The notes below the pieces were generated by a model. It saw only the letters and a program-made list of their open reading frames with translations. It did no database searches and was not told the origin of the DNA. Positions 7,398-28,017 of a DNA stretch of 64,000 nucleotides are shown here, piece after piece. Numbering within the stretch: position 1 is the stretch's first letter; each line of letters begins with the position of its first letter. Position numbers and translations under genes: made by a program. Origin of the DNA: Nitrospirota bacterium (GTDB taxonomy: Bacteria > Nitrospirota > UBA9217); NCBI GenBank assembly GCA_049793155.1, contig JBARBN010000053.1, forward strand, positions 285 to 64,284, read 5' to 3'.

Positions 7398-7667
7398 TGT
7401 TGATCGCCTTTTTCCCTTTTTTCTGATCTCGTTCTCCGTCTTCAGACTTCCCTCATTTCATTTGTGAATCCCTACAGCTTAATAAAGGTCGTCATTAGCA
7501 ACCGGAAACTTTTTTTCTGTTATACTAACAACAGAATCGTCTCTGAGAGTGCAGATGTGCGGATACGACGCTGAAATAAGTCTATAGTTGCAGTGCCGGA
7601 ATGGCAATAAAGTTATCGTTGGTTATGAAAGCTTAACGTGTACGCTTTATTAATGAAGGAGTCAGTG

Positions 7668-8393
7668 ATGCAAAAGGCATCTGTTTTATGCTTCACGCTG
7701 GCAATGTGTTTTTATTTTACCCATGCCTCCTTTGCTTATGAAACGATTCCTTTCAAAAATGGCGGAAACATCGAGGGCACGGTGGAGTTTGCCGGGGCAC
7801 AGGTACCAAGTGATCCCATTGTCTCACTTACCTCCGAGACGGAATTCTGTGGTAACAGCATGCCCGCCCAACAATACCTGATCAGGAATAGAAAGGTCCA
7901 GAATGTGATCCTTTTCCTGGATGGCATCAAGGCAGGAAAGGCGATTCCCCGGGAGGCGCTTACGGTGACGAGTCGAAAATGCGCATTCGTTCCTCATGTT
8001 GCGGCGGGATTCAAGGGAAATAAGATCATCTTGAAGACCGATGATCCGGTATTCCATGCCTTTGATATTCATGCTTCCATAAGCGGCAAGGAGATCTATC
8101 ACGTCGCTCTTCATGAAAAAGATTCCTCGGTGACAAAAACTCTTTCGAAGGACGGTCTTCTGGATCTCACGTGTTATACCCATCCCTGGCAGCATGCATA
8201 CGTCTATATTTTTGATCATCCGTATGTAGCGATTACAGATGAAAAGGGTGAATTTGTCATCAAAGACATTCTCCCGGGAACCTATACGGTCAAAGCCTGG
8301 CACGAAGCGCTGGAGATAACAGAGATCCGGGATATAAAAGTTGAAAGCGGGAAAACCAGCACCATTAAAGTCAAGTACAACAAGGAGCATTAA
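7668..8393 (+). CDS. secreted cupredoxin-domain protein, paralog 1 (Cys-His-Gln site), with a carboxypeptidase-regulatory-like C-terminal domain
   Basis: Signal peptide MQKASVLCFTLAMCFYFTHASFA. FVPHVAAGFKGNKIILKTDDPVFHAF fits the cupredoxin pattern F-x-P...N-x-D...H. Ligand loop TCYTHPWQH (C-x2-H-x2-Q). C-terminus EKGEFVIKDILPGTYTVKAW. A GAAGGAG RBS precedes the ATG at 7668. Confidence 0.7.
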   Translation: MQKASVLCFTLAMCFYFTHASFAYETIPFKNGGNIEGTVEFAGAQVPSDPIVSLTSETEFCGNSMPAQQYLIRNRKVQNVILFLDGIKAGKAIPREALTVTSRKCAFVPHVAAGFKGNKIILKTDDPVFHAFDIHASISGKEIYHVALHEKDSSVTKTLSKDGLLDLTCYTHPWQHAYVYIFDHPYVAITDEKGEFVIKDILPGTYTVKAWHEALEITEIRDIKVESGKTSTIKVKYNKEH

Positions 8394-8417
8394 TCTTTCT
8401 TACTGAGGAGGTTCGTG

Positions 8418-9131
8418 ATGAAAAGAAGCGTTATTTTTTTTAGTGTTTTGGCGGTACTGTTTTCTTTCTCTGCAGTTTCCTTTGCCTATGAAACGATCGA
8501 AGTGAAGAATGGGGGAAGCATCGAAGGCGTGGTCGAGTTTACAGGGGCAACGGTCCCGAAGGATCCCATGGTCACGCTGAGTTCCGAGGTAAAATACTGC
8601 GGCAAAACGCTCCCGGCGGAAAAGTATCTGATCAAGGATAAGATGATCGAAAACGTCGTTGTGTATTTGACGGATATCAAGTCCGGAAAGGCGATTCCCG
8701 GCGAGCCGGTCACCCTGACGAATATAAAATGTCTTTTTTCGCCTCATGTCGCCGTCGGCTTCAAGGGCGGCAAGATCATTCAGAAGAACGATGACCCCAT
8801 CTTTCACAATATCCATACGTATCTGAACGGCAAGACAATGTTCAATATAGGTCTTCCTGAAAAGGGATCTTCGGTGACGAAGCCATTGCTGAGGGACGGC
8901 CTCATGGAAGTGACGTGCGACAGCCATCCCTGGATGCATGGTTTTATCCAGATTCTGGACCATCCCTACGGAGTAGTCACCAATGCAAAAGGAGAATTTT
9001 CAATAAAAGACATCCCCGCCGGCACCTATACCGTTGAAGCCTGGCACGAGGCCCTGGGCAAGGTAAAAGTGGCAAATGTCAAAGTTGAAAGCGGTAAGGC
9101 CAGCAAGATCAAGCTCGAATACAAAAAATAA
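8418..9131 (+). CDS. secreted cupredoxin-domain protein, paralog 2 (amicyanin-like Cys-His-Met site)
   Basis: Colinear with the upstream gene. Roughly half the residues are identical by eye. NDDPIFHNIH plus TCDSHPWMHGF (C-x2-H-x2-M, compare amicyanin CTPHPFM). Signal peptide and a GAGGAGG RBS are present. Confidence 0.7.
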   Translation: MKRSVIFFSVLAVLFSFSAVSFAYETIEVKNGGSIEGVVEFTGATVPKDPMVTLSSEVKYCGKTLPAEKYLIKDKMIENVVVYLTDIKSGKAIPGEPVTLTNIKCLFSPHVAVGFKGGKIIQKNDDPIFHNIHTYLNGKTMFNIGLPEKGSSVTKPLLRDGLMEVTCDSHPWMHGFIQILDHPYGVVTNAKGEFSIKDIPAGTYTVEAWHEALGKVKVANVKVESGKASKIKLEYKK

Positions 9132-9155: not shown

Positions 9156-10424
9156 ATGAAAAAGGGTACGTTGCTGGGGGTTTTGGTTTTTTTTCTGGTT
9201 GTCATGATGATGCCGTATGAGTCTTACGCTGTTCCGTCCTATGCCCGTCAGGTCCAGAAGCCCTGCACTGCCTGTCACACCGTCTGGGGAAACCTGAACC
9301 AGTACGGAAGACAGTTCAAGGTCAAGGCGTATACCGATGTGAGCGAGAAATGGGAGATGATCAACAAGGACAACATGAACCTGCCGACGATCGCCCCGTT
9401 TTCCACGAGGGTCGTCCTTGAGCCATATGTAAAAGACAACACTCCCGGTGCCCCGGGCTCGACCAGCGACGTCAATCAAGTTGCGATATTCATGGCAAGC
9501 AGGGTTTTTGATTACGCCGGCGTATTTGCGAGCGCCGAGGCCGATGGCTTTTCCGCCACCTCGGGCGGCGGTACATTTAGCATACCGACTGTAAAAGTGG
9601 CTTTTCAGTATCCCCTGGGAGAGGGCAATACCATAGGCCTGGTCGCCTTCGGAGGGCTCGCCGCATCAGCAGATCCCTTTAACACCTTGGGAGGCAGGGA
9701 CCGGGACCTGTCTTTTGATGACGGGACTCCCTTTATCCTTAATACAGGCTGGACGTTCAATTTCTGGAGCGGAACGAACATCGGTGAAGTTCTTCACGGC
9801 TACTTCCTCGGCAACCGTCTCTATGCTGCCGTGGGCGTAATGAGGGGCGGGAACACAGCGGATGGTATAGCCGGCCTGTCAAACGCCGATAATTCAGATC
9901 CCAATGATATGTACTATCGCATTGCCTGGGACCAGAAACTTCCGAACGGCGCGGTCACCTTCGGAGGCGTTCTTTACGATGGCAAACAGAGGATTACCAC
10001 TGGAGGCTTACCCTCCTATGATTCCAAGGTTAAAAGGTCGTATGTTGACCTATCGTTGGAGCAAAACTACGGAGAGGACCATATCGTCGAATTGCAGGTA
10101 CTCTACGGCGGCGGCGAGGACAAGAACGTATTTAACGACGACACGGGGGGAAGAAAGTTCAGCGGTTCCTATGTTCAGGCTGATTATTACTATGACAGGA
10201 CGATCGGCGTGATAGCTTCTCTCAACAACATAAAATACAAGGATGTCTTAGCAACAGACCTGACCCCGATTGACAAAGTCGATCAATGGCTTGTCGGCGT
10301 TAATTACATGCCCTGGCTGAACACGAAAGTGGCCCTTCAATATGCGAACGCCAAGACAACGATGTTGGACGGCACGGATTCAACCAACAGGATCACGAGA
10401 CTCGTGTTGGATCTCCTGTACTAA
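9156..10424 (+). CDS. outer-membrane monoheme cytochrome-porin fusion (Cyc2/Cyt572-like)
   Basis: Signal peptide, then a single CxxCH (KPCTACH) about 12 residues into the mature protein. After that come about 380 aa with no further Cys, rich in Gly and aromatics with an alternating beta-strand pattern, ending ...LVLDLLY (C-terminal aromatic). Confidence 0.6.
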   Translation: MKKGTLLGVLVFFLVVMMMPYESYAVPSYARQVQKPCTACHTVWGNLNQYGRQFKVKAYTDVSEKWEMINKDNMNLPTIAPFSTRVVLEPYVKDNTPGAPGSTSDVNQVAIFMASRVFDYAGVFASAEADGFSATSGGGTFSIPTVKVAFQYPLGEGNTIGLVAFGGLAASADPFNTLGGRDRDLSFDDGTPFILNTGWTFNFWSGTNIGEVLHGYFLGNRLYAAVGVMRGGNTADGIAGLSNADNSDPNDMYYRIAWDQKLPNGAVTFGGVLYDGKQRITTGGLPSYDSKVKRSYVDLSLEQNYGEDHIVELQVLYGGGEDKNVFNDDTGGRKFSGSYVQADYYYDRTIGVIASLNNIKYKDVLATDLTPIDKVDQWLVGVNYMPWLNTKVALQYANAKTTMLDGTDSTNRITRLVLDLLY

Positions 10425-10440
10425 CTGACATAGTAGCATT

Positions 10441-10468
10441 CTCCCGGGGGCCGGCCGGTCCCCGGGGT
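10441..10468 (+). terminator. GC-rich hairpin between the cytochrome-porin gene and the bd-like oxidase gene (possible attenuator or RNA-stability element)
   Basis: cccgggg (10443-10449) pairs with ccccggg (10460-10466). It lies in the only sizeable gap (71 nt) of the operon. The downstream T-run is weak. Confidence 0.3.
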
Positions 10469-10495: not shown

Positions 10496-12241
10496 ATGGC
10501 GGAAGCCGATGTGAAAAAAGGCATCCTGAAGGGAATTGTTAAATTTACTGCCACTCTCGGCGCTGGCTTTATACTCCTCGTTGTTCTTAAAAATATGCTG
10601 GCCGCGCCTTCAGAGGACGGATACCGGTTCTTCCCCCTTATCGGAAGCAGGGACTGGATCTGGATCATCGCCCAGCTCCACCTGAATTTCGCCGCCTTCG
10701 TCCTGGGGGTCCCCATCTTTGCGGTTGCGATGGAGTTCATGGGATGGAAAAAGAAGGATGAGAGACTGGATCGTATCGCGTATGACTTTACCAAGCTTTT
10801 TACGCTGGCGTATAGCGTGACGGCGGTTATGGGCTCTTTCTTTCTCATCAGTCTTCCGCTGCTCTACCCTAAATTTATCGATTATATGATGAAGATACTC
10901 GGGCCCACCTGGTGGTTGTACCTCATCGTGATGTATGGAGAGGTGTTCGTCTGTTATTATTATTTTTATTCCTGGAAAAAATTGAAAGAACGGAAGGGCT
11001 TTCATGTCGCCGTGGGCGTGCTGTTGAATATCCTCGGGGCGACGCTGCTTTTGATCACCAGTTCATGGGTCGGATTCATGACCACCCCGGCAGGCGTGAA
11101 CGCGGACGGTGATCTGGTCAGCAGATGGGCCGCGATCCACACTCACATGTGGATACCCCTGTCCATGCATCGGTTCGTGGCCAACATCGTATTCGGGGCA
11201 GGGATCGCCGCGGCCTATGCGGCCTTCAGATTCATTACCGCAGAGACGGATGAAGAACGGGCATATTTTGACTGGATGGGCTATACCTCGGCGATCATAT
11301 CGATCGGGGCCTCACTCCTGCTGCCCGGTGTCGGGTATCTTCTCGGTGTCGAGATCTATTCCTTCAATGAACAAATGGGCATCCAGCTCATGGGAGGATT
11401 TTTCGCGTGGTTGTGGGTCATGCAGTCCATCATGATCGGCGCGATCCTGTTCTTCATCAATTATTATCTCTGGATATCTCTCCAAAAAATGCCGGGAGGT
11501 GAACGGTATTTCACGCATGTAAAATTCATATTTATTGCACTGGTCATAGGCTATGCGGTCTGGCTCGTGCCCCATGATGTAGCGCTGAGCCTCGAAGAGG
11601 CACGGCGGACGGGCACGTATCATCCCGCACTGGGCAAACTGGGCGTCATGGCCGCAAAGAACACCGCTGTAATCCTTTCCTATCTCGCCACTTTTTTGAG
11701 CTTCGCCATTTTCCGGATGAGCAACAAAGAGGCGACCGTTTCCTGGGCCAAAAAAGGGAATATCGCCCGGACGCTGATCATTGTCGGCTCAGTCGCCGGC
11801 GTGCTGGGGATCGGCATCTACAGTTATTACGTCTCCGCGGCAGTAAGAGTGAAGGTCCTTTCACCCATCCAGTTCGGTATCTTCTTCCTTTCCCTTGTTG
11901 CCCTGTATGTTCTTGACAGCGCCATGTATAAGGGCGCCCGGATCATCGGCGAACCGAGGTGGGGCAAGATGCCCGAGCGATCGCAGTATGCGCTTATCGC
12001 GATAACCGTGACCTTTACCTGGCTGATGGGGATGCTGGGCTACATGAGGGCCGGCGCAAGGCAATACTGGCATGTGTACGGGATCATGAAGAACACGAGC
12101 CCGGACGCCTATCTGCCCACCCATGGATATGCATCGGTCATTGTCACGATCGTCACGCTGCTTTTTCTGCTCCTTATCTCCTTTGTCTTTTGGAGCATCA
12201 TGAAACTTGAGAAGGTCCTTGGTGAAAGGAAGGGGAACTGA
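10496..12241 (+). CDS. cytochrome bd-like oxidase, CydA-related subunit (orphan, about 14 TM)
   Basis: 581 aa with about 14 hydrophobic helices by eye. WIWIIAQLHLNFAAFVLGVPIF resembles the CydA helix-1 His region (..MYHFLFVPLTLG..). SMHRFVANIVFGAGIAAAYAAF resembles the CydA His186 region. No cydB-like gene is adjacent. Confidence 0.6.
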   Translation: MAEADVKKGILKGIVKFTATLGAGFILLVVLKNMLAAPSEDGYRFFPLIGSRDWIWIIAQLHLNFAAFVLGVPIFAVAMEFMGWKKKDERLDRIAYDFTKLFTLAYSVTAVMGSFFLISLPLLYPKFIDYMMKILGPTWWLYLIVMYGEVFVCYYYFYSWKKLKERKGFHVAVGVLLNILGATLLLITSSWVGFMTTPAGVNADGDLVSRWAAIHTHMWIPLSMHRFVANIVFGAGIAAAYAAFRFITAETDEERAYFDWMGYTSAIISIGASLLLPGVGYLLGVEIYSFNEQMGIQLMGGFFAWLWVMQSIMIGAILFFINYYLWISLQKMPGGERYFTHVKFIFIALVIGYAVWLVPHDVALSLEEARRTGTYHPALGKLGVMAAKNTAVILSYLATFLSFAIFRMSNKEATVSWAKKGNIARTLIIVGSVAGVLGIGIYSYYVSAAVRVKVLSPIQFGIFFLSLVALYVLDSAMYKGARIIGEPRWGKMPERSQYALIAITVTFTWLMGMLGYMRAGARQYWHVYGIMKNTSPDAYLPTHGYASVIVTIVTLLFLLLISFVFWSIMKLEKVLGERKGN

Positions 12242-12756
12242 TGAAAAAGGGCGTCTTGAAGCTCGCGATCATCGTCATTGGCCTGAACTTGATCTTTCTT
12301 TATATTGGTCTGGAGTTTCTTCCCCAGTCGGAATCCAGGCCGCCGAAGGTGATCAAGATCGCGGAAGGCATCTCCCAGGAAGACCTGATCCAGGTCGGCG
12401 AGGAGATCGTTTTTGGAAAAGGCCAGTGCATGGTATGTCACCCGGCAAAACCTGAATCGGGAATGCGGGCTCCATCCATGGCCGCAATAGGAGCAGACCT
12501 GGAGAAGGAGGCCCGCGAGCGGGGGATGACGTCCGAAGATGTTGTTTTCGAGGCCCTTATCAACCCCTCCAAATACATCGTAAAGGGGTTTGAAGACAGC
12601 ATGTCGCGCGTGGACAAGCCTCCGACGTCGCTGACCGACGGGGAGATCATAGCAGTAGCAGCATATCTGCAGAGCCATGGAGGAAAAGTCACGCTTTCCT
12701 ATCCCGGTTCTGTCCCGATCCTGAAGGGCCAAATAGCAAAGTCAGGAGGGAAGTAA
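12241..12756 (+). CDS. membrane-anchored monoheme c-type cytochrome
   Basis: N-terminal TM helix, one CxxCH (GQCMVCH) and a distal Met region. Its ATG overlaps the upstream stop (TGATG). Confidence 0.8.
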   Translation: MKKGVLKLAIIVIGLNLIFLYIGLEFLPQSESRPPKVIKIAEGISQEDLIQVGEEIVFGKGQCMVCHPAKPESGMRAPSMAAIGADLEKEARERGMTSEDVVFEALINPSKYIVKGFEDSMSRVDKPPTSLTDGEIIAVAAYLQSHGGKVTLSYPGSVPILKGQIAKSGGK

Positions 12757-12757
12757 G

Positions 12758-13561
12758 ATGCAATTCATATTCCCCATCATCACTTTGATCGGTTTGACGA
12801 TCTCGATCATCTCCAGTATGAAAAAATCCCCGTTCTTCAACTTCGTGGGTATCCAGATGGCCATCTACGGAGGATTGAAAAGTCTGGCGCTCGTCATGCC
12901 TCCTCTGCCGGGACAAGTTGTTGTCATGCTCGTGATCATGTCCTTCTTTTCGTTTCTCATCTATTTTTCGATCCAGGATGATACGCTGAAGGCCTTTCTT
13001 GAGCCCATGAGAGCGGTCATTGCCGACGATGACAAAAGAATTTTGAGGATACTCATCGTATATGTCCTCATACCCCTGCTGGCCGGATATATAACCTACG
13101 TAGAGGTAAAGCCTGCGTTTGAACCTCCGTTGTCGGGGAGGATCACCCATCCCGAGCCACCGTCGGAGATCGACTTTAAAGGAGACACAATAAAGATACT
13201 CGGATTGGAGAACCCCCTGCGAAAGGATTCTGCGAATCTTTCGAAGTATGGCGAAGAGGGGAAAGTAATTTACTTCCAGAACTGTTTCATCTGTCACGGC
13301 GCTGACTTGGACGGTCGGGGACAATTTGCCCAGGCATTTAATCCGCCGCCGCCTCCCTTCCGGGGCACGGATACGATCGCGCAGCTGCCGGAGTCCTATG
13401 TGTTCTGGAGGATAGCAAAGGGATGGACGGGTCTTTCCGCGGGCGCGACCCCATGGGATTCAGCCATGCCGGCATTTGAGAATATACTTACACAGGAACA
13501 GACGTGGAAGGTGATCCTCTATATGTATGAAGCTACCGGTAACAAACCAAGGACATGGTAA
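12758..13561 (+). CDS. polytopic membrane protein with a C-terminal monoheme cytochrome c domain
   Basis: 3-4 N-terminal TM helices followed by YFQNCFICHGADLDGRG ...WDSAMPAF (class I cytochrome c). There is a 1-nt gap to the upstream gene. Confidence 0.75.
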   Translation: MQFIFPIITLIGLTISIISSMKKSPFFNFVGIQMAIYGGLKSLALVMPPLPGQVVVMLVIMSFFSFLIYFSIQDDTLKAFLEPMRAVIADDDKRILRILIVYVLIPLLAGYITYVEVKPAFEPPLSGRITHPEPPSEIDFKGDTIKILGLENPLRKDSANLSKYGEEGKVIYFQNCFICHGADLDGRGQFAQAFNPPPPPFRGTDTIAQLPESYVFWRIAKGWTGLSAGATPWDSAMPAFENILTQEQTWKVILYMYEATGNKPRTW

Positions 13562-13586
13562 GGATATGCGGAAGGGAGATTCTCCA

Positions 13587-15008
13587 ATGAGGTTTTTTAT
13601 TGCCCTTGTTTTGCTCGCGTCAATTCCAATGACCGCACTTTCCGAAGAGAAGGGAAAGGCCCTCTATGATCAGTCGTGCGCTTCATGCCATGGGGAAAAG
13701 GGCGATGGGAAGGGCCCGGCGGCTGATTTCGTGTTCCCGAAACCAAGGGATTTTACGAAGGGCACGTACAAATTCAAATCCACGGGGTCGGGTGAGCCGG
13801 CCCTTGATTCGGACATTCTCCGGACAATACGGGAGGGAAATCCCGGTACGTCGATGCCTGCCTGGAAACGCTTCAGCGATGATGAGGCCAAAGCGCTTGT
13901 CGTTTATCTGAAGCAGTTTTCTCCGGATACCTTTTCGATACAAGGCGCCCCTTTCAAGATAGGTAATCCGCCGGGCAACAAGGATAAGATGATAGCACTC
14001 GGGAAGGAACTGTACCAGTCGGTGAAGTGCTGGGAATGTCACGGCAAGGCCGGCAGGGGCGACGGCGAGAAGGGATGGCAGGAAAAGTTCAAGGACGATT
14101 GGGGCAACAAGATATATCCTGCAGACCAGACAAGTCCCTGGGAATACAGGGCAGGCAGTGATCCGAAGGATGTGTTAAAAACGATTTCAGTCGGTTTCGA
14201 CGGTACGCCCATGACCTCATACGGAGATACGGTCACGGAGGAGAAGAGGTGGGCGCTTGCGTATTTTGTGCAATCGCAGCAGCAGACAAGGGTCCTCGGC
14301 CCGGCATTGCGGGTGAAAAAAGTGGAGGCCATCCCCGCTGCAACCGACGATCCGGTCTGGCAGGGCGTTGAGTATCTTGATCTTCCGATGGCAGGACAGG
14401 TGATCTTTGAGCCGCGTGATTTTACCGCGTTGATCACCAATGCGCGGGTACGAGGGGTCTATAGCAAGACCGAGTTGGCAGTGATGATAGAGTGGACCGA
14501 CAAACAGCAAAACAAGGGTGAGGACAATCTCCCCCCCGACGCAGCACGTATACAGTTCCCGACCAAAGCCCCGGAAGTAGCCAAGCCGTACTTATTCATG
14601 GGGGACAAGAAACTGGGGGTCAATATCTGGCAATGGAAGGCCTCTGACAATCTTGCTGTTGAATTCACTGCAGCAGGACCCGAGAATCTGACTCAGCAGG
14701 AAAAACAGGACGTGAAAGTAACTGCTGCGTTTACAGATGGACGCTATAGGGTCATGTTCAGGAGGCTGTTGAACTCAGCCAATGAAAACCACACCGTTTT
14801 TGAAGTCGGCAAGTTTATGCCGTTTTCGGTTACCCTCTACGATGGTCGTAATAATGAGTCGGACAAGAAGGGGGCGATCTCAGCTTGGTATTACCTGGTG
14901 CCGGAGCCGGCAACGCCTGCGAAGGTTTATATGCTCCCGCCCCTGGTATTCCTTGTCATACTCGGCATCGGCTTTATATTGCACAAGAAGTTGAGGAAGA
15001 AACGTTAG
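13587..15008 (+). CDS. diheme cytochrome c fused to an EB_dh/DOMON-like (heme b type) domain, with a C-terminal TM anchor
   Basis: Signal peptide MRFFIALVLLASIPMTALS. CASCHGEKGDGKG and CWECHGKAGRGDG. A roughly 200-aa domain, DDPVWQGVEYLDLPMAGQ..., resembles the ethylbenzene-dehydrogenase gamma family. C-terminus VYMLPPLVFLVILGIGFILHKKLRKKR. An alternative start exists at 13566. Confidence 0.65.
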   Translation: MRFFIALVLLASIPMTALSEEKGKALYDQSCASCHGEKGDGKGPAADFVFPKPRDFTKGTYKFKSTGSGEPALDSDILRTIREGNPGTSMPAWKRFSDDEAKALVVYLKQFSPDTFSIQGAPFKIGNPPGNKDKMIALGKELYQSVKCWECHGKAGRGDGEKGWQEKFKDDWGNKIYPADQTSPWEYRAGSDPKDVLKTISVGFDGTPMTSYGDTVTEEKRWALAYFVQSQQQTRVLGPALRVKKVEAIPAATDDPVWQGVEYLDLPMAGQVIFEPRDFTALITNARVRGVYSKTELAVMIEWTDKQQNKGEDNLPPDAARIQFPTKAPEVAKPYLFMGDKKLGVNIWQWKASDNLAVEFTAAGPENLTQQEKQDVKVTAAFTDGRYRVMFRRLLNSANENHTVFEVGKFMPFSVTLYDGRNNESDKKGAISAWYYLVPEPATPAKVYMLPPLVFLVILGIGFILHKKLRKKR

Positions 15009-15025
15009 GCAGGAGAATCATCGGC

Positions 15026-16021
15026 ATGTACAAAAAAATATTTATCCCTATAGATAACTCGAAATATTCCCGCTACTGTACCGACATTGGGGTGTCCCTG
15101 GCTTCCAAGCTCGGTTCCGAACTGATCGGCAGCCACGTCTACAGCGCGCGTTTGCACGACAAGCGGTTCCGGGACATGGAGGCAGGACTGCCCGGGCATT
15201 ATCAGGAGGAAGGCAGACTGCGGAAATCGAGAAAGGTCCACGATTCCCTGATCGGGGACGGGTTGAGAATAATCTCCGATTCTTATCTGGAATCCTTTAA
15301 AAAGGACTGCAGGGAATCCTCAGTGCCGTTCAATTGTAAAATGATGGAGGGGAAAAACTGGCTGGAGCTGGTAAAAGACATCCGAAGCAGCGGCTATGAT
15401 CTGGTGATCATGGGGATCCTCGGCCTCGGCGCGATGAACGGCAACCTTATCGGGAGTGTCTGTGAACGGGTAGTGCGGAAGGTCACGGCAGATGTCCTGG
15501 TCGTAAAGAACAGTGAACCGCTCAATGAACGGATCGTCGTGGCGATCGACGGCAGCGATCATTCCTTTTCGGCATTGAAAAAAGCACTGGCCCTGAACAA
15601 ACAGTTTCATTCGAAGATCGAGGCCGTATCCGTTTATGACCCCTATTTTCACAGAAGGGCCTTCCAGGCTCTGGTGGGCGTCCTCTCAGACGAAGCCGGG
15701 AAAATGTTCAAGTTTAAGGATCAGGAAAAGCTGCACGATGAGGTCATTGATGACGGTTTGGGAAAGATATATCAGGGGTACCTTGAACAAGCTGTTCAGA
15801 TAGGGGCCGCTCAAGGGGTCGAAGTGAAAAGTACGCTTCTCGCAGGAAAGGCGTATGACGAAATCCATAAATATCTGGAAAAAGACCCGCCATCTCTTCT
15901 CATCGTAAGCCGCTTTGGTGCGCATACGACCGACGAACAGGACATCGGCAACACTGCAGAGAACCTTCTTCGCCTTGCACCGTGCAATCTGCTTATCACG
16001 GGTAATTCTCACGTTGAATGA
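15026..16021 (+). CDS. tandem universal stress protein (two UspA domains)
   Basis: MYKKIFIPIDNSKYS..., VIMGILGLG...GSVCERVVRK..DVLVVK, and a second repeat IVVAIDGSDHS...LLIVSRFG...GNTAENLLRLAPCNLLI. An AGGAGA RBS precedes the ATG at 15026. Confidence 0.8.
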   Translation: MYKKIFIPIDNSKYSRYCTDIGVSLASKLGSELIGSHVYSARLHDKRFRDMEAGLPGHYQEEGRLRKSRKVHDSLIGDGLRIISDSYLESFKKDCRESSVPFNCKMMEGKNWLELVKDIRSSGYDLVIMGILGLGAMNGNLIGSVCERVVRKVTADVLVVKNSEPLNERIVVAIDGSDHSFSALKKALALNKQFHSKIEAVSVYDPYFHRRAFQALVGVLSDEAGKMFKFKDQEKLHDEVIDDGLGKIYQGYLEQAVQIGAAQGVEVKSTLLAGKAYDEIHKYLEKDPPSLLIVSRFGAHTTDEQDIGNTAENLLRLAPCNLLITGNSHVE

Positions 16022-16081: not shown

Positions 16082-16996
16082 ATGGAGCTGTATATGCGAT
16101 CTCCTGTGTTCACCTATTTAATAGTAACCGTTTCTCTTATATTCTCAGCGGTTCTTTTTGCGATGGGGAACCCATATGCCTACGCAGGCAACGAAGCGAT
16201 TGAGGATCAGGTTGCCGGTATTTTATCCGAGGAATCTGCGCCGGGGAAAATTAAAATACTTGTCTTAGATTTCAGCGTTTCATCCGTAGATACTGAAAGG
16301 AAACCCACTGAGAAGGAATTGAAAGACCGGGGGATTCTGTACACGGAAGAATTCATAGCCAACCTCATGAATAAGATCAGAGATTTAGGGAAACGGGACA
16401 AAATATCCATAATTGATCGCAGCAGACTGGAGGATATCCTTCGAGAAAAAAAATTGCCAATAATGGCCACTCCAGAGCGCACGGCAAGTGAAATCGGCCG
16501 TCTTGCAGGGGTAGATGTGATAATCTCCGGCAGACTGCAAATAGCAGGTAACACCATAACCGCAACGACAAAAGTGGTCAGAGTTAAAGATGGCGAAATA
16601 CTGGATATTGTAAAACAAGACAAACAGGAGAAACCATCCCCAATTGTCCATGTCCCCGTAATTATCCTGGAGAGAGTTGAAGAACTTAAAATTGGTACCT
16701 ATACGGCGTTGCCTCTGAACGTGCCCTCGGGCGGTACACTCAGCGTGACCATTGAAGTCGTTCATGGAAATCCGATCGATATAAACGTCATACCGGGATC
16801 GGATTTGGAAAACTTCAAAGTCCAAAAAAAGTTTAATAATATTTCCGATTTTATGGCCACGAAGATAAAGAGCTACAAACGCTCGGCTAAAGTTCGCAAT
16901 GGCGTTGACTATTATCTTGTACTTCGTGATAGCTCTTTGGGTATTTTTACCGCGCAGAGGAGCGAGATTAAGATCATAGTTCAACTGGAACCATGA
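16082..16996 (+). CDS. hypothetical exported or anchored protein: LpoB/FlgO/CsgG-like N-domain plus DUF1883-like C-domain
   Basis: N-terminal hydrophobic segment. KILVLDFSV...ISIIDRSRLEDILREKKL...GVDVIISGRL fits the TolB-N/LpoB-like fold pattern. The C-terminal roughly 110 aa (SGGTLSVTIEVVHGNPIDINVIPGSDLENF...YYLVLRD) resemble DUF1883. The gene is AT-rich. Confidence 0.45.
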   Translation: MELYMRSPVFTYLIVTVSLIFSAVLFAMGNPYAYAGNEAIEDQVAGILSEESAPGKIKILVLDFSVSSVDTERKPTEKELKDRGILYTEEFIANLMNKIRDLGKRDKISIIDRSRLEDILREKKLPIMATPERTASEIGRLAGVDVIISGRLQIAGNTITATTKVVRVKDGEILDIVKQDKQEKPSPIVHVPVIILERVEELKIGTYTALPLNVPSGGTLSVTIEVVHGNPIDINVIPGSDLENFKVQKKFNNISDFMATKIKSYKRSAKVRNGVDYYLVLRDSSLGIFTAQRSEIKIIVQLEP

Positions 16997-17246: not shown

Positions 17247-18521
17247 ATGAACGACCTCCATGTTATATCCTGGAATGTCACTAGAAGATGTAATCTTGAA
17301 TGCACCCATTGCTATCTTCCCGCGGATACGAGAAAAGAAAGTTCTGCTCTTCCCGCCGCTGACGAACTCTCCACCAAGGATGCCTTCCGGCTCATCGATC
17401 AAATTGCCGCTGTCAACCCCGAGGTCATGCTGATCCTGTCTGGAGGAGAACCCCTCCTGAGAGGGGACATTTTTGATCTATCTGCGTACGCCTCAGGTAA
17501 GGGCATGATGGTTGTTATGGGTTCCAATGGACTCCTTATTGATGACGCCGTTGCCCGCAAGCTGAAACAGGCCGGGGTCTCCGGGATAAGCATCAGTCTT
17601 GATTCAATCGACCCGATAATTCACGATGATGTCCGCTCTTGCCCGGGCGCCTGGAAAAGGGCGGTAGCGGCAATAGAGAACTGCAAGAACGCGGGATTGT
17701 CAGTGCAGATCAATACGGTTGTCACCGGCAGGAACTGTGATGAGCTGCCCGCATTGATGAACTTTTCTCAAAAACGGGGAGTAAAGGTCTTTAGCCCGTT
17801 CTTCCTGGTCTGTACCGGCAGGGGAGAAGAACTGACGGACATATCGCCGCAGCAATACGAATTGGTATTGTCCCGGATCGTCGAGTCTCAGGGAAAATAT
17901 GGCGATCTGATGATAAGGACACGGTGCGCCCCGACAATACGTCGAATTCTGTATGATAAAGATCCCGACTCATCGCTGCTCAAGATGGGCGCCGGGCGTT
18001 GTCTCGCCGGTTTGACCTATTGCCGGATCACGCCTGAAGGTGACGTGACACCCTGTCCATACCTGTCCGTTTCAACCGGAAATATCCGCGAGCGGGATTT
18101 CGGGGACATCTGGAACAACTCCAGCCTCTTCGACTCTCTGAGAAATCCTGCTCTCAAGGGCAAATGTAAAGGATGTGCCTTGCGCCTCGTCTGCGGCGGT
18201 TGCAGAGCGAGGGCCTATGAGACCTATAAAGACTACCTGGAAGAAGATCCCTGGTGCAGCTATATTCCCAATGGAGGTGAAGTGGTGAAACCACCATCGT
18301 TCGGCAAGGATAACAATGCTTCAGCAAATGGATCGATCAAGCCTCTCTGGACGGCGGAGGCGGAAGAGCGGTTGAAGAGGGTGCCCTCGTTCGTTCGCAC
18401 GATGGTAAGAAGCGCCGCGGAGCGTTACGCGATCGAGCATAATTATCAAGAGATCACCCCTGGTATGATGGAAGAACTCAAACAAAAAGCAGGGATGGGA
18501 GGAATGGGTGGACATCGATAA
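17247..18521 (+). CDS. radical SAM/SPASM protein (AhbD/NirJ-like) with a C-terminal PCP_red-like extension
   Basis: CNLECTHCY radical SAM cluster motif and SGGEPLL. A Cys-rich SPASM region (CPYL..., CKGCALRLVCGGCRARA). The C-terminal roughly 70 aa (PLWTAEAEERLKRVPSFVRTMVRSAAERYAIEHNYQEITPGMMEE) resemble the protochlorophyllide-reductase 57-kD C-terminal domain. Confidence 0.7.
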   Translation: MNDLHVISWNVTRRCNLECTHCYLPADTRKESSALPAADELSTKDAFRLIDQIAAVNPEVMLILSGGEPLLRGDIFDLSAYASGKGMMVVMGSNGLLIDDAVARKLKQAGVSGISISLDSIDPIIHDDVRSCPGAWKRAVAAIENCKNAGLSVQINTVVTGRNCDELPALMNFSQKRGVKVFSPFFLVCTGRGEELTDISPQQYELVLSRIVESQGKYGDLMIRTRCAPTIRRILYDKDPDSSLLKMGAGRCLAGLTYCRITPEGDVTPCPYLSVSTGNIRERDFGDIWNNSSLFDSLRNPALKGKCKGCALRLVCGGCRARAYETYKDYLEEDPWCSYIPNGGEVVKPPSFGKDNNASANGSIKPLWTAEAEERLKRVPSFVRTMVRSAAERYAIEHNYQEITPGMMEELKQKAGMGGMGGHR

Positions 18522-19996: not shown

Positions 19997-21217
19997 ATGA
20001 GGTTATCAATGCGGTATAGTTGTGCTTTAGCTGCGCTGTTGTTATTAGGCCTCGGTGATGCAACAACTGCATCGGCTGTAGTCGTCGAAGGAAGAAGTTC
20101 CACGGAGCTTCTGTGGTACAACGATATTGTCGATGGCAGCAAGCAGACGGAGGCCGCGGAGTTGCTCAGGGTCTCGATCAGCGGTATCGACAACGGCAAC
20201 AAACTGTCCATCAAGGGGTACGGCAAACTCGATTATGATTTGAAGCACGGCGGTGATCTGGAAAATCGATTGTATTATTTATATGCCGACTACAAGGGTT
20301 TCATGGACAAGGCCGATATCAAACTGGGACGGCAGTTTGTGAACCTGTCAGCCGGCAGCGCTCTTCTGGACGGCATCGAGGCGGACATCAACAAGATCGG
20401 CCCCGTTGGTTTCGTGATCACGGGGGGGCGGGACGTCATTTTCGGTGAAGAAAAGGAGTTGGCGAGCCATCTCTATTCTTACGGCGCTCAGGCGTACCTC
20501 ACCGGCCCTCAGATGACCTATCTTGATATCAGCTACTATCGTGCTTACGATTATGGCGATATCGCCCGGGATATCATCGGCAGCAGCTACAAGCAATATT
20601 TTTTCAATCTCGTCAAAGCATACGCGAATGCCAGGTATGATCTCACGAGCAAGTCGTTCAACGAGGTCCTTGCGGGACTCAAGTATTTCCCGACGCTGAA
20701 CCTGATGCTGACCGCTGAGCATTATGAAAGTTACCCTACGTTTGATACGACCTCCATATATTCGGTATTTGCCGTCGATAAGTTCAAGGAGAATTTATTC
20801 AGGGCAGAATATACGCTGGCTGCATGGGTCGATATCAGCCTTGCCTTCAGCCATGAGAGCGTCGGTGAGGGCGGCCAAGCGAAATTGTACGAGGCAGGGT
20901 TGAGGTTCAGGCCTTCGATGAACACGACGATTGGCGTCTTCCACGACAAACGCAATGGATATCCCGGGGACCTTGACGGATATAAGATCTACGCTGAATA
21001 CAGCGCCATGGGAAAATGGAAGGCCGCAGGGGGCATTGACTATGATGCCTATGAACGGGACGACATGACCGGCCAGGAGACTGCACGCAAATACTGGGTC
21101 GGTGGAAAGTATGTTTTTGCAAAAAATATGGCCAGCTCGATTCGTTTGGAGGACGATGTCAATGTCAACTATACGAAAGACATACAGGGCAGGCTTACCT
21201 TTGATGTTGATTTCTAA
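19997..21217 (+). CDS. putative outer-membrane beta-barrel porin of a porin-cytochrome conduit
   Basis: Signal peptide ...GDATTASA. 406 aa with alternating hydrophobic and aromatic strands, many Y/G/D turns, and a C-terminal ...RLTFDVDF. The nonaheme gene starts 17 nt downstream. Confidence 0.6.
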   Translation: MRLSMRYSCALAALLLLGLGDATTASAVVVEGRSSTELLWYNDIVDGSKQTEAAELLRVSISGIDNGNKLSIKGYGKLDYDLKHGGDLENRLYYLYADYKGFMDKADIKLGRQFVNLSAGSALLDGIEADINKIGPVGFVITGGRDVIFGEEKELASHLYSYGAQAYLTGPQMTYLDISYYRAYDYGDIARDIIGSSYKQYFFNLVKAYANARYDLTSKSFNEVLAGLKYFPTLNLMLTAEHYESYPTFDTTSIYSVFAVDKFKENLFRAEYTLAAWVDISLAFSHESVGEGGQAKLYEAGLRFRPSMNTTIGVFHDKRNGYPGDLDGYKIYAEYSAMGKWKAAGGIDYDAYERDDMTGQETARKYWVGGKYVFAKNMASSIRLEDDVNVNYTKDIQGRLTFDVDF

Positions 21218-21233
21218 TGAAAGGGGAGCATCC

Positions 21234-22307
21234 ATGAAGAAATTGCTCATATTGGCAATGGTGATAGTTATTGCTTCGGCGGTGGTTGCATTTGCCGCTC
21301 ATAATCCAGGCATAACTGCGCAGACGGAATCTCCTGCAGCACAACCGGCGTCGCCTCCCGGAGATCAGTCATCAGCGACTCCTGCAGAACCGGCGCCCCA
21401 GACGGAAGCATCTGCTCCGGCAACACCCGCTCCGGTGGAACCTGCTCCGGCGACACCTGCTCCAGCAGCGTCTGCTCCGGTGGCACCTGCTACGACAGCT
21501 CCTGCTCCACAACAGGAGGCCTCTCCGGCGCCGGCCTGGCAACCGGCTACTTCGGCGACATCCACGGCTGCTTCAACTGCGCCGCCTGCAGGGTTCATGG
21601 TTCAGCAAATGTCCCATAAAGATTTTGCGAAAATGGACTTAAAAGAGTGCACGAAATGCCATAAAGGTTCAGGCGTTGCACCGACTCACGGGTCAGATCA
21701 GATGAGGGAACACAGTTTCCTCGCACGCCGAGCCGGAAAGAACTGTACGGACTGTCATAACCAGCAGTTCTGTTTAGATTGTCACAAGGGCGGCGGCATT
21801 GACGCGGATCTGAGCGTCTCGAATTATCGTACGAGCTACGTACCCAAAACCCACCGGACCGATTTCCGGGAGATCCATCCCATAAAGGCACTGGACAATC
21901 CGCAGTCCTGCTACCGGTGCCACGACGCGAAATACTGTTCAGAGTGCCATGCCAAGTTCAAGGGAGATGATCTCAGGATACAGTCTCACCGCAGGGCGTG
22001 GTCTGACCTTCAAGCAGGAAATCCGGGCCCTGCCCACGCTTCATTTACCGCGGACCAGTGCCAGACCTGCCATCCGGGCGGGCTTCTTCCAAAGCATGTA
22101 TGGTCTGCTGACCATGCGCAGGAGGCGCGGAGGAACCTGCAGGCATGCCAGACCTGTCACAGTGACGGCGATGTATGCATGACCTGTCACAGCGCCCGGC
22201 GCGGCCTCATGGTCAATCCTCATCCCAGGGGATGGGACTCTGTGAAGGGCAGATATAGCAAGAAGAGCGGCGGTCGAAGCTGTCAAAAGTGTCATGATAC
22301 TTATTAA
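21234..22307 (+). CDS. periplasmic nonaheme c-type cytochrome with an N-terminal Pro/Ala-rich spacer
   Basis: Signal peptide MKKLLILAMVIVIASAVVAFA. About 100 aa of P/A/T/S low complexity. Nine CxxCH motifs (CTKCH, CTDCH, CLDCH, CYRCH, CSECH, CQTCH, CQTCH, CMTCH, CQKCH) in about 235 aa. An AGGGGAG RBS precedes the start. Confidence 0.85.
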   Translation: MKKLLILAMVIVIASAVVAFAAHNPGITAQTESPAAQPASPPGDQSSATPAEPAPQTEASAPATPAPVEPAPATPAPAASAPVAPATTAPAPQQEASPAPAWQPATSATSTAASTAPPAGFMVQQMSHKDFAKMDLKECTKCHKGSGVAPTHGSDQMREHSFLARRAGKNCTDCHNQQFCLDCHKGGGIDADLSVSNYRTSYVPKTHRTDFREIHPIKALDNPQSCYRCHDAKYCSECHAKFKGDDLRIQSHRRAWSDLQAGNPGPAHASFTADQCQTCHPGGLLPKHVWSADHAQEARRNLQACQTCHSDGDVCMTCHSARRGLMVNPHPRGWDSVKGRYSKKSGGRSCQKCHDTY

Positions 22308-22405
22308 CGACGGGCCATATTGAATCGATATGAATAACACCTGAGGGAATAGGGAGTCACGAAGAATCATGATTGCCATCCCATCAAAGCAAGGAGGATC
22401 GCAAA

Positions 22406-24604
22406 ATGTTTAAACGATTCGGGATCATTTTTGGGTTACTAACGATTTTACCAGCCTTGTTTCTCGTTTATGGATGCGGAAACAGCAAGCGAGAGTCGGC
22501 GGGCGAAGCTCCCATCGCAGCGGTGAGCGCTGCCGGAAATATCCAGGCCAATATTACCGGTGCGGTGGTTTCCGCTACGACCGGCAGTTTGGTCGTCACA
22601 TTCACCCTGTTTGATGAAAAGGGGTCGGCATTGGATCCTGCGGATGCCACTATTAACGGGAAAAGCTTCGTTATAGCCCAGCTCGGCGCTGACGGTGAGT
22701 ACCATGATCCGATCCGCAATTCAAGTAGACAGCCCACGGCTGATTCGGGAGGCACGTTTGCCGGATCAGGTGGCACCTACACCTATGCCTTCGGCAAGAA
22801 CATCACAACGCTGCCCGGGTATGATGCCACGAAAACGTATACCGTGGCCGCCTATATCGGAAGAACCATTTCGAACGTAGTCGGCTCGCCCTTTCGGCAG
22901 ATATCCAATCCGCGATTTGACTTCAGGCCCGATGGTACAGCGGCAACGGATCACCGGGAGATCGTTGCCATTGATGCCTGCAATGAGTGCCACGGTAAGC
23001 TCACCGCCCATGAGGGCAACCGGATGGATGTCCCCCTTTGTATCCTCTGCCACAATCCAGGCGAGATCGATACCGATACCGGCAATACGATCGATTTCAA
23101 AGCAATGATCCACAAGATACACATGGGAAGCAAACTGCCCAGCAATACAAGGGGTGGCGCTTACGGCATCATCGGATTTGGCAATGCACAGCACGACTTC
23201 TCAAAGGTTGTCTATCCGCAGATGTCCGGGGATACCCAAACAGATAATGCTCCTGTTGATTGCGTCAAATGCCACCGGCTCGGTACAGACACGAACGGTA
23301 AAGCGTACGGCAAAGATGTTGATAAGTGGAAAACGAAACCAAGCATAGAGACATGCACCGGGTGCCACGATGTGTACACCTTTGATGGCATTACAAGCTC
23401 AGTGACAGTCACGACGTTTGCAGGGGTCGTCACCTCCGTGACGGCTTCAGCTCACTCCGGCGGCGTACAGCCGCTGGATAGCTCCACCTGTGCGGTGTGC
23501 CATACGGGCACAGGAGACGATGCATATGCATCCATCTCGGTTCCCGCGGTTCATACGATCCCGATCAAGTCGAGCCTTAATCCGGGACTCGTTTTTAGTA
23601 TTGTTTCCGCAACCGGTATTGCATCGGGTTTGACGCCGTCGGTCACCTTTACCATTACAGACAAGACGGGGGCCAATGCCGTTATGGTGCTTGGCGACCG
23701 TACGGATGTGATCATGGGGTACATGACCGGTATTGAGTATGACAATACGCTGGCAAATTGGATTTTCGGTCAGAGCACGGTTCAGGGAAAAGCGGCGAAT
23801 GCCTTCTCAACATCCGTCACGACAACGGCGAATGCAGACGGATCCTATACGGTCTCCTATGATAGGCCCTGGTATGTGCCGTCTGCCACGAAATTGAAAC
23901 CAGTACTGCCGCCAAGCGGCGTTGTTACGTTCGCCGTATATGGCGGGAAAGCAGTAACGATCCCGGCTGCCAATACAGCGCATCGAGTGGCCGCTGGGAC
24001 AAGCAAGGTCACCATGACTTCAACCTCGGTTGCGATCAACTACTATGATATCGCGACCGGTTTGACCGCAACTCCGGCACAACAGCGCCGGCAGGTGGTC
24101 TCAACTGAGCTCTGTAATGTCTGTCATTTGCAACTTGCATTCCACGGCCGGAGGACAGAAACTCAGCTCTGCGTAATGTGCCATGGCCCGAATCTTACTT
24201 ATTTAGCGCCATCGAGCAGCCCCTCACCCGGCTACTCGGGCAATTTGAAGGATTTTGTTCATGGCATCCACGGGGCGACAACTTCAACTACTGTTTTCAG
24301 AGGAGTGGAAGTCGCAGAAATTCCGAATGATCCGAGGAAATGCAGTATCTGTCACCTCAATAATTCCCAATTGTTGCCGCTGCCCGTGGGGGTAAAGGGC
24401 TCACTCAAAACAGGAACAACCGGAACGTCTTTGGATGGTACGCCGGTGTTAACGATAAAAGCCGCATGCGTGGCGTGCCATGAAAACCCCTTGACAGCAA
24501 CACACGCAGACAGTAAAGTTATTTCCGGAAGTGAAACCTGTGTGGTCTGCCATGGGACAGGATTACTCATGGGTGTAGATGCTGTTCATTTGCCGGCTAA
24601 TTAG
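22406..24604 (+). CDS. lipoprotein decaheme c-type cytochrome with MtrC/OmcA-like four-domain layout
   Basis: Lipobox LVYGC. Ten CxxCH motifs sit in two groups of five (nt 22977-23504 and nt 24113-24553). Each group is preceded by a roughly 190-200-aa heme-free, Thr/Ser/Val-rich region. An AAGGAGGA RBS precedes the start. Confidence 0.8.
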   Translation: MFKRFGIIFGLLTILPALFLVYGCGNSKRESAGEAPIAAVSAAGNIQANITGAVVSATTGSLVVTFTLFDEKGSALDPADATINGKSFVIAQLGADGEYHDPIRNSSRQPTADSGGTFAGSGGTYTYAFGKNITTLPGYDATKTYTVAAYIGRTISNVVGSPFRQISNPRFDFRPDGTAATDHREIVAIDACNECHGKLTAHEGNRMDVPLCILCHNPGEIDTDTGNTIDFKAMIHKIHMGSKLPSNTRGGAYGIIGFGNAQHDFSKVVYPQMSGDTQTDNAPVDCVKCHRLGTDTNGKAYGKDVDKWKTKPSIETCTGCHDVYTFDGITSSVTVTTFAGVVTSVTASAHSGGVQPLDSSTCAVCHTGTGDDAYASISVPAVHTIPIKSSLNPGLVFSIVSATGIASGLTPSVTFTITDKTGANAVMVLGDRTDVIMGYMTGIEYDNTLANWIFGQSTVQGKAANAFSTSVTTTANADGSYTVSYDRPWYVPSATKLKPVLPPSGVVTFAVYGGKAVTIPAANTAHRVAAGTSKVTMTSTSVAINYYDIATGLTATPAQQRRQVVSTELCNVCHLQLAFHGRRTETQLCVMCHGPNLTYLAPSSSPSPGYSGNLKDFVHGIHGATTSTTVFRGVEVAEIPNDPRKCSICHLNNSQLLPLPVGVKGSLKTGTTGTSLDGTPVLTIKAACVACHENPLTATHADSKVISGSETCVVCHGTGLLMGVDAVHLPAN

Positions 24605-27777: not shown

Positions 27778-28017
27778 GGTAAATCCTCCTTTGTCATTTT
27801 TAAAAATCCCGATATTGCCATGGAGATGCCACCGGTGCCTTTTGGACCGAGAACCGCACTCGAGGAGCAAGCTTTAATAAGCACCTATATCATAGGATAA
27901 CGCTTTCGCGCGATATTTTCCAGTGTTTTAAGGTGTCAGAATATAATCGATAGACTGCATTGGAATGAATACTCGATGTATTTCAAAATGAATGTCCGGC
28001 ACACCGGCCCTGTTAAC

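Follow-up and report, generated by a model that had tools for sequence, protein, structure and literature searches.

Cyc2 is the most widely used genetic marker of microbial Fe(II) oxidation. Proteins of this kind are built of a signal peptide, a single CXXCH and a porin of 16 strands that resembles OprO and OprP (Keffer et al. 2021; PMC8406198). Experiments have demonstrated Fe(II) oxidation by the Cyc2 of Acidithiobacillus ferrooxidans, that of Mariprofundus ferrooxydans PV-1 and that of Ca. Mariimomonas (PMC8406198; PMC13647500). The sequence AXPXFAR[Q/K][T/Y] upstream of the CXXCH is described as unique to Cyc2, with some variation between clusters, whereas the PXL downstream of it is not unique; the same authors screened with PXFAR[Q/K][T/Y], CXXCH and a length of at least 365 amino acids (aa) (Keffer et al. 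2021; PMC8406198). According to the Manganitrophaceae papers, Nitrospirota also possess a putative terminal oxidase, TO_1, made up of a bd-like protein and a periplasmic cytochrome b. Here we analyzed a 64,000-nucleotide (nt) stretch of a Nitrospirota bacterium (the window; all positions below refer to it), which carries at 9156..10424 on the plus strand a gene for a Cyc2-type monoheme cytochrome-porin. The best explanation of the locus, in which we have moderate confidence, is that a Cyc2-family porin feeds electrons via cupredoxins to a bd-like complex and O2.

The open reading frame (ORF) encodes 422 aa plus a stop codon, and a ribosome-binding site, GGAGGAG, lies about 7 nt 5′ of its ATG. 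By inspection, the N terminus, which reads MKKGTLLGVLVFFLVVMMMPYESYA and then VPSYARQVQKPCTACH, carries a Sec-type signal with KK, a hydrophobic core and SYA. Cleavage was predicted after SYA, giving a signal peptide of residues 1 to 25 (9156..9230, +), and in the alignment the conservation among homologs sets in exactly at this site, A25/V26. The mature protein is 397 aa long, with 10.8% Gly and 12.1% Tyr, Phe and Trp together. Its only Cys residues are C37 and C40 of a single CTACH (residues 37 to 41, codons at 9264-9278, +), which starts at mature residue 12, and 381 residues without Cys follow H41. The protein ends in Tyr; the usual terminus of outer-membrane barrels is Phe, which is the last residue in 114 of 116 close homologs. 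The original prediction had described a signal peptide with one CTACH early in the mature part, about 380 Cys-free residues after it, many Gly and aromatic residues, a C-terminal Tyr and a mature size of about 400 aa, and each of these features held when recounted.

The cytochrome region, residues 25 to 61 (AVPSYARQVQKPCTACHTVWGNLNQYGRQFKVKAYTD; 9228..9338, +), is the best-conserved part of the protein and follows the Cyc2 consensus with three substitutions. When 30 homologs were aligned, with identities down to 42%, C37, C40 and H41 were invariant in all 30, and the stretch of about 37 residues with the consensus AVPSYARQxQKPCTACHTIWPNLNQYGRQFKVKAYTD was by far the most conserved. Exactly one CxxCH is present in 116 of 116 family members and in 144 of 144 remote relatives in which the N terminus is retained. 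The motif of the window protein, AVPSYARQV-QKP-CTACH-TVW-GNL, keeps the frame and the spacing of the published consensus, with changes of F to Y, T/Y to V and P to G. AVPSYARQV is identical to the consensus at five of the seven specified positions, and three residues separate the motif from the first Cys, as across the superfamily. The family motif, AVPS[Y/F]ARQ-x4-CxxCH-x3-PxL, is the published Cyc2 signature with conservative changes. In the relaxed form P.[FY]AR[QK], the signature is found in 106 of 116 family members and 108 of 144 remote relatives, and PxL stands at the expected position in 90 of 116 and 123 of 144, respectively (family consensus CTACHTIWPNL; GNL in the window copy).

Each of the 171 homologs obtained in a protein search is annotated as hypothetical, and wherever a source is named, it is a Nitrospirota metagenome-assembled genome (MAG). 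Scans with Pfam and NCBIfam gave no meaningful match to the Cyc2-type protein, including no cytochrome domain and no Pfam porin; since these libraries contain no Cyc2 model, the null result says nothing against Cyc2 membership. In an exhaustive HMMER search, the family profile matched 2587 cluster representatives at an E value of ≤1e-3 and 491 at ≤1e-10. The matches were typically 400-500 aa in length and aligned end to end, and their N termini follow the pattern A[VI]P[SA]FARQTGxxCxxCHxxFPxLxxFGRxFK. One of these relatives, P0215, has Gallionellales/Gallionellaceae MAG homologs (P0374 and P0400), and the alignment of its clade matched that of the target family over 390 columns spanning both domains (HHalign, 99.7%, E value of 4e-26). 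Closer to the window protein stands HAM50271.1 (P0076), which is 53% identical to it over the full length (E value of 2.7e-141) and is encoded at a syntenic locus (L008) of the MAG UBA9159. Aligned in the Ca. Mariimomonas preprint under the name HAM50271_UBA9159, this ortholog is described as a Cluster 2-type Cyc2 by both the preprint and the paper (PMC13647500; 10.64898/2026.03.26.714105).

The link to Cyc2 rests on the published motif, the profile homology, the Gallionellales-containing clade and the HAM50271 accession match. Family and architecture together allow us to place the gene with high confidence in the Cyc2 superfamily, as a predicted member of a Nitrospirota subfamily with a slightly relaxed signature. 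The original prediction had spoken of a Cyc2/Cyt572-type protein. Its Cyc2 side is borne out by the invariant CxxCH, the motif variant, the 16 strands of the modeled barrel, the profile homology and HAM50271; on the Cyt572 side, the published label of the ortholog, which is second-hand, would, if it carries over, point to Cluster 2, the side of A. ferrooxidans, and not to Cluster 3 (Cyt572). No unrelated porin family matched the protein better, and the CxxCH is conserved in its homologs.

The AlphaFold2 model of the Cyc2-type protein (predicted local distance difference test [pLDDT] score of 72.7, predicted template modeling [pTM] score of 0.73) contains 16 beta-strands in residues 82 to 421 (9399..10418, +), at the lower end of the 16 to 18 that had been expected. 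As found with Foldseek, the PDB neighbors of this barrel are the 16-strand porins Omp32, OmpT, OmpF/OmpC, OprP (2o4v) and OprO (4rjw), with E values down to 1.5e-11 and template modeling scores of 0.54 for OprP and 0.51 for OprO. Strands 5 and 6 are connected by a long stretch without strands (about residues 168 to 207) that contains the nearly invariant ADPFNxLGGRDR; like loop L3 in general porins, this stretch may line the constriction of the pore. When the PDB was searched by sequence with the family profile, zero matches were obtained even at an E value of ≤10, so no solved Cyc2 relative is detectable by sequence. Two other classes of outer-membrane protein were considered and rejected. 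An MtrAB/MtoAB/PioAB-type complex has about 26 strands around a separate decaheme cytochrome, whereas the window protein has 16 strands and one fused heme motif, and a candidate of the MtrAB kind is encoded elsewhere in the window, at 19997-24604; general 16-strand diffusion porins (Porin_4, OmpF/Omp32/OprP type) are similar in fold, but the window protein lacks a Pfam porin match and has a conserved heme motif. No second Cyc2 paralog was found in the window, and the 400-aa ORF at 28018-29220 (−) was ruled out as one, since it does not encode a barrel protein.

The subfamily was found in 21 species-level genomes in a genome scan that was restricted by its search patterns and whose MAG titles are vague. 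The best match was only 74% identical, so the window organism is not among the representatives scanned. The genomes are labeled Nitrospirota, Nitrospirae, Nitrospiraceae, Thermodesulfovibrionales or Thermodesulfovibrionia, with one labeled Thermodesulfobacteriota, and the MAGs that supplied the homologs were recovered from soil, groundwater, peat and sediment. Upstream of cyc2, one or two paralogous fusions of a cupredoxin with a CarboxypepD_reg domain, each about 240 aa, are encoded at all 20 loci with upstream sequence. A bd-like cluster lies 3′ of cyc2 at 13 of the 18 informative loci, those whose sequence extends far enough downstream, and Cyc2 identities there range from 74% down to 41%. 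The set of genes downstream is fixed. It comprises a bd-like CydA homolog, a monoheme cytochrome c anchored in the membrane, a polytopic protein bearing a cytochrome c domain, a diheme cytochrome c whose fusion partner is an NxrC/EbdC-like heme-b domain, a tandem universal stress protein (Usp) and, usually, an AhbD/NirJ2-like radical SAM protein. In the window, gaps of 21 and 24 nt separate the three upstream genes, and genes inside the oxidase cluster are spaced by −1 and +1 nt or overlap. At a few other loci the genes are broken: the Cyc2 gene of L019 (10019-11339) and the bd-like gene of L006 (11308-13033) are split across frames, and the entire oxidase cluster of L015 (11463-14326) is fragmentary. 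Such breaks may stem from indels in the assembly or mark copies in decay.

The two upstream genes of the window, at 7638..8393 (+; paralog 1, true start probably the ATG at 7668) and 8415..9131 (+; paralog 2), both encode such cupredoxin fusions, with a Sec signal peptide and no membrane anchor. Pfam recognized only the C-terminal CarboxypepD_reg domain in either of them. Paralog 1 contains TCYTHPWQ, with putative type-1 copper ligands H...C-x2-H-x2-Q and Gln as the axial residue, and paralog 2 contains TCDSHPWM, with an axial Met. The ligand pattern is amicyanin-like, being C-x2-H-x2-M in paralog 2, with Gln replacing Met in paralog 1; among 28 aligned orthologs, H107, C144, H147, P148 and W149 (A2 numbering) are invariant, and position 150 is M or Q. 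Searched against the PDB, the cupredoxin profile matched copper nitrite reductase (NirK; E value of 6.6e-5), the Nitrosopumilus blue-copper protein 5fc9 (6.7e-5) and amicyanin (7.5e-4), the last over almost the whole amicyanin length. The AlphaFold2 model of paralog 2 reached a pLDDT score of 91 and a pTM score of 0.84, and its best Foldseek matches were the NirK domain, 5fc9, amicyanin, AcoP of the A. ferrooxidans rus operon and plastocyanin. By fold and by the His/Cys/His/Met-or-Gln pattern, the upstream proteins are predicted type-1 cupredoxins with putative copper binding.

The same kind of fusion accompanies Cyc2 in Gemmatimonadaceae. There, a canonical-motif Cyc2 (IPAFARKY...CSACH, ending FDF) is followed on the DNA by genes for a diheme cytochrome c, a cupredoxin-CarboxypepD_reg fusion and COX2/COX1/COX3, in a rus-operon-like arrangement (L032, 9755-16900; also L026, L027, L029 and L033). 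Because these loci pair it with COX genes, the cupredoxin fusion travels with Cyc2 in two phyla and with two different oxidases.

Downstream of cyc2, the gene at 10496..12241 (+) encodes a 581-aa homolog of cytochrome bd subunit I, which would be the membrane core of the TO_1-type putative terminal oxidase. It gave a partial PF01654 match (7e-16) and matched Geobacillus CydA (5doq) at 2e-8 over the N-terminal 170 residues. The next gene (12241..12756, +), which is syntenic among loci, encodes a membrane-anchored monoheme cytochrome c with an N-terminal transmembrane (TM) helix, CMVCH and a Pfam Cytochrom_C domain, and it is followed by that for a polytopic membrane protein with a C-terminal monoheme cytochrome c domain (12758..13561, +), as supported by domain scan and synteny. 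At 13527..15008 (+) lies the gene for the diheme cytochrome c fused to the NxrC/EbdC-like heme-b domain, with two Pfam Cytochrom_C domains, EB_dh, TIGR03477 and a C-terminal TM anchor. Its PDB matches are 6h5l chain B (2.5e-44; diheme domain, residues 40 to 253) and, for the C-terminal domain, which resembles NxrC, 7b04_C (NxrC) and 2ivf_C (EbdC). Chain B of 6h5l was deposited as "Conserved hypothetical cytochrome protein", and in the anammox bacterium Kuenenia it serves as the diheme partner in an HAO-like complex. An NCBIfam match of the diheme protein to "cytochrome 579" was rejected as a sign of a Leptospirillum-type chain, since it reached 42 bits against a cutoff of 280 and covered the heme-binding stretch only. 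The conserved tandem Usp (14885..16021, +; true start probably near 15026) ends the cluster. The AhbD/NirJ2-like radical SAM/SPASM protein with a C-terminal PCP_red domain (17247..18521, +), identified by Pfam and below both NCBIfam equivalog cutoffs, is syntenic with the oxidase cluster in L001, L002, L005, L006, L009, L012, L014 and L018, and it may make or modify heme for the cluster. Matched by description, the downstream set, with its CydA-like protein, NxrC-like heme-b subunit and c-type cytochromes, fits what has been published for TO_1.

Between the cyc2 stop codon and the start of the bd-like gene, a terminator scan detected a GC-rich hairpin of 11 pairs followed by a T-rich run (10442..10467, +). 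It is present at the matching position at 10 of 13 loci (the window, L001 to L006, L009, L010 and L019) and absent from L012, L014 and L018. The hairpin may attenuate transcription or stabilize the upstream transcript; the three upstream genes and the oxidase genes may therefore be expressed at different levels.

From these features the following mechanism can be proposed. The N-terminal 40 or so residues of the Cyc2-type protein are predicted to bind one c-type heme covalently and to place it at or within the periplasmic mouth of the 16-strand barrel. Dissolved Fe(II) would enter the pore and give one electron to this heme, from which the electron would pass to one of the two soluble periplasmic cupredoxins encoded immediately upstream and so cross the periplasm. 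The adjacent bd-like (TO_1-type) complex would then accept it through its membrane-anchored cytochromes, of c type and b type, and reduce O2. Since one cupredoxin has an axial Met and the other Gln, their potentials probably differ, and by analogy with stellacyanin-type sites the Gln-ligated paralog 1 probably has the lower one. An inward electron-entry role coupled to the neighboring genes appears reasonably likely, given the conserved linkage to cupredoxins and a bd-like oxidase; that Fe(II) is the physiological donor we put at about an even chance. More tentatively still, the cupredoxin fusion(s), Cyc2 and the bd-like TO_1 genes may make up, in uncultured Nitrospirota related to Thermodesulfovibrionales, a self-contained metal-oxidizing, O2-reducing respiratory chain; the fusions would be a dedicated periplasmic partner of Cyc2 across phyla that had not been recognized before, and the terminal oxidases would be interchangeable, bd-like here and heme-copper in Gemmatimonadaceae.

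Several results weigh against this account. The strict motif P.FAR[QK][TY] is found in none of the 116 family members, versus 71 of 144 remote relatives, because the last motif position in the family is always V, I or L, and the window copy departs further from the signature, having Y where F is expected and G in place of the PXL proline. As no family member passes the strict form, the Cyc2 motif behaves as a consensus, in line with the variation between clusters that its authors point out. The 30-homolog alignment showed neither an invariant Met nor a second invariant His that would be an obvious distal heme ligand, and the heme region was poorly modeled by AlphaFold2 (pLDDT below 50 at residues 18 to 74), so that the model does not give the placement of the heme; low confidence in this region is expected, since the model was built without the cofactor. 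The bd-like protein is a putative oxidase, and its likeness to CydA is limited to the N-terminal half. At five of the 18 informative loci, L008 (UBA9159), L013, L016, L017 and L020, the oxidase is not adjacent and unrelated genes follow cyc2, which rules out a single invariant operon of Cyc2 and bd-like oxidase, and where the two are adjacent in the window, the hairpin separates them. Relatives of the lineage are mostly known as anaerobes. Finally, a separate porin and multiheme cluster 10 kb downstream could be the main extracellular electron route.

The strongest of the competing explanations, which we consider unlikely, keeps the same electron path and makes it protective: in a mostly anaerobic host, the chain would scavenge O2 or detoxify Fe(II) or reactive oxygen species at oxic-anoxic interfaces, with Fe(II) as a sacrificial donor. 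Such a role would suit genomes labeled Thermodesulfovibrionales/Nitrospirota, the tandem Usp conserved in the cluster and the common use of bd-type oxidases in scavenging O2. On the other hand, the bd-like protein is 75-86% identical among intact loci whose Cyc2 proteins are only 41-74% identical, and this strong conservation fits core respiration, as does the elaborateness of a chain with several cytochromes and two cupredoxins.

A somewhat smaller chance is left to an explanation that keeps protein and path and replaces Fe(II) as the donor by Mn(II) or some other soluble reductant, such as a complexed metal or reduced humics. Nothing in the sequence fixes substrate specificity. Mn(II) lithotrophy is attributed in the Manganitrophaceae papers, as a proposal, to Cyc2 acting with the bd-like TO_1; these papers also mention Cyc2 homologs across Nitrospirota, and the TO_1 composition given there, a bd-like protein plus a periplasmic cytochrome b, matches the window cluster. 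Yet every Cyc2 tested so far oxidizes Fe(II) (PMC8406198; PMC13647500), and the one-electron oxidation of free Mn(II) needs a potential far above the 208 mV of Cyc2 PV-1 (PMC8406198). Moreover, no Manganitrophus-titled locus appeared among the close relatives in the pattern-restricted genome scan with its vague MAG titles.

It is improbable that electrons flow outward along this route, from quinol oxidized by the bd-like complex via the cupredoxins and Cyc2 to a soluble acceptor such as Fe(III) chelates. Porin-cytochrome systems of the Mtr/Mto kind can run both ways, and the window also contains an MtrC/OmcA-like decaheme cytochrome, a 9-heme cytochrome and a porin, which are typical machinery of extracellular electron transfer. 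But cupredoxins usually have potentials too high to reduce Fe(III), the Gemmatimonadaceae module of Cyc2 and cupredoxin is linked to a heme-copper oxidase, an electron sink, and all characterized Cyc2 proteins act as oxidases of external Fe(II) (PMC8406198; PMC13647500).

That the protein is an ordinary diffusion porin whose N-terminal CxxCH is incidental or binds no heme is very improbable, for even though the barrel resembles general porins, one homolog has a precomputed Porin_4 match and no Pfam or NCBIfam model recognizes the cytochrome domain, the CxxCH with its surroundings of about 37 residues is the most conserved part, invariant in the family and present in all full-length relatives (2587 cluster representatives in the superfamily), and the gene is always linked to redox proteins.

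Other electron-transfer genes are present in the window. The region 19997-24604 (+) looks like a second, separate extracellular electron-transfer module: it encodes a barrel protein of the outer membrane, about 380 residues long when mature and with DVDF at its end, together with a 9-heme cytochrome (21102-22307, +) and a 10-heme MtrC/OmcA-like cytochrome (22373-24604, +; PF22113, 1.9e-50). Just beyond it, on the minus strand, lie genes for a four-CxxCH cytochrome c (26593-27870) and a DUF362 protein with a 4Fe-4S dicluster domain (24697-25764), and a DUF3373 protein, of a family of unknown function, is encoded at 38627-40051 (+; E value of 4e-131). Between the Usp and radical SAM genes, the window, alone among the loci, has a gene for a CsgG-like protein (16082-16996, +). 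A homolog of it is found upstream of the cluster in L002, and at the other loci no CsgG-like gene stands between the Usp and radical SAM genes.

The protein itself is of an expected kind, and it is the cluster that suggests that electrons travel all the way from a dissolved metal outside the cell to oxygen. Part of this is already known, since the ortholog has been named Cyc2 in print and a pairing of Cyc2 with TO_1 has been hypothesized for other Nitrospirota. In a limited literature search, whose silence is weak evidence, we found no description of a physical clustering of Cyc2 with the bd-like complex or of the constant cupredoxin-CarboxypepD_reg partner, and no mention that this subfamily fails the strict motif used in curation. 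If the route from Cyc2 through the cupredoxins to the bd-like complex is true, it would be the first case of genetic linkage between a defined electron source and the enigmatic bd-like "oxidase" of Nitrospirota. The linkage to the TO_1 cluster bears on the function of Nitrospirota bd-like oxidases, and that to two cupredoxins on the identity of the carrier that accepts electrons from Cyc2 at neutral pH. Nitrospirota MAGs from soil, groundwater, peat and sediment commonly encode the subfamily; their lineage is usually regarded as one of anaerobic sulfur cyclers. Surveys may miss the subfamily because it fails the strict motif screen used for reference sets and is unrecognized by Pfam and NCBIfam.

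Among described systems, the locus of HAM50271.1 in UBA9159 (L008) shares with the window the N-terminal motif and the upstream cupredoxin-CarboxypepD_reg gene; unlike the window, it has no bd-like cluster within 10 kb downstream, and HAM50271.1 is itself uncharacterized. With Cyc2 PV-1 and the Gallionellaceae proteins of Cluster 1, the window protein has in common 16 strands, OprO/OprP-like neighbors, a single heme and the motif spacing. Identity to the Gallionellales-containing clade is only about 22% in the profile alignment, and the ADPFNxLGGRDR loop is specific to the window subfamily. The Cyc2 of Ca. Mariimomonas ferrooxydans (Thermodesulfovibrionia) comes from the same host class and likewise combines a signal peptide, CxxCH and 16 strands (PMC13647500). 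Its Fe(II) oxidation was shown in Escherichia coli; since it is reported as Cluster 3-type and closest to the Deltaproteobacteria SURF_14 protein (PMC13647500), the tested protein belongs to a different Cyc2 lineage. The closest reference genome of Ca. Mariimomonas (JAZFSN01) holds a 42%-identical member of the window subfamily (L020). Cyt572 of Leptospirillum is also a Nitrospirota outer-membrane monoheme cytochrome-porin that oxidizes Fe(II), but it has an unusual heme and forms a long branch in Cluster 3 (PMC8406198); no Leptospirillum locus was returned by the pattern-restricted genome scan.

The two components seen here, Cyc2 and TO_1, have been proposed to work in one chain from extracellular metal to O2 in Ca. 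Manganitrophus and other Nitrospirota. In the accessible text of those papers, Cyc2 and TO_1 are separate loci and the donor is Mn(II), and neither adjacency nor cupredoxins are mentioned there; in the window the two are adjacent and are joined by cupredoxin genes. The rus operon of A. ferrooxidans (cyc2-cyc1-cup-coxBACD-rus) likewise joins a fused signal peptide/CxxCH/porin protein with cupredoxins, c-type cytochromes and a terminal oxidase (PMC8406198), and its cupredoxin AcoP is a structural match of the cupredoxin upstream of the window gene. It differs in having an aa3 oxidase where the window cluster has a bd-like one; in the window, the cupredoxins are fused to CarboxypepD_reg and lie upstream of cyc2, and the motif ends in V, I or L rather than in T or Y. 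By this analogy, the cluster may be regarded as a functional analogue of the rus operon built with a different oxidase.

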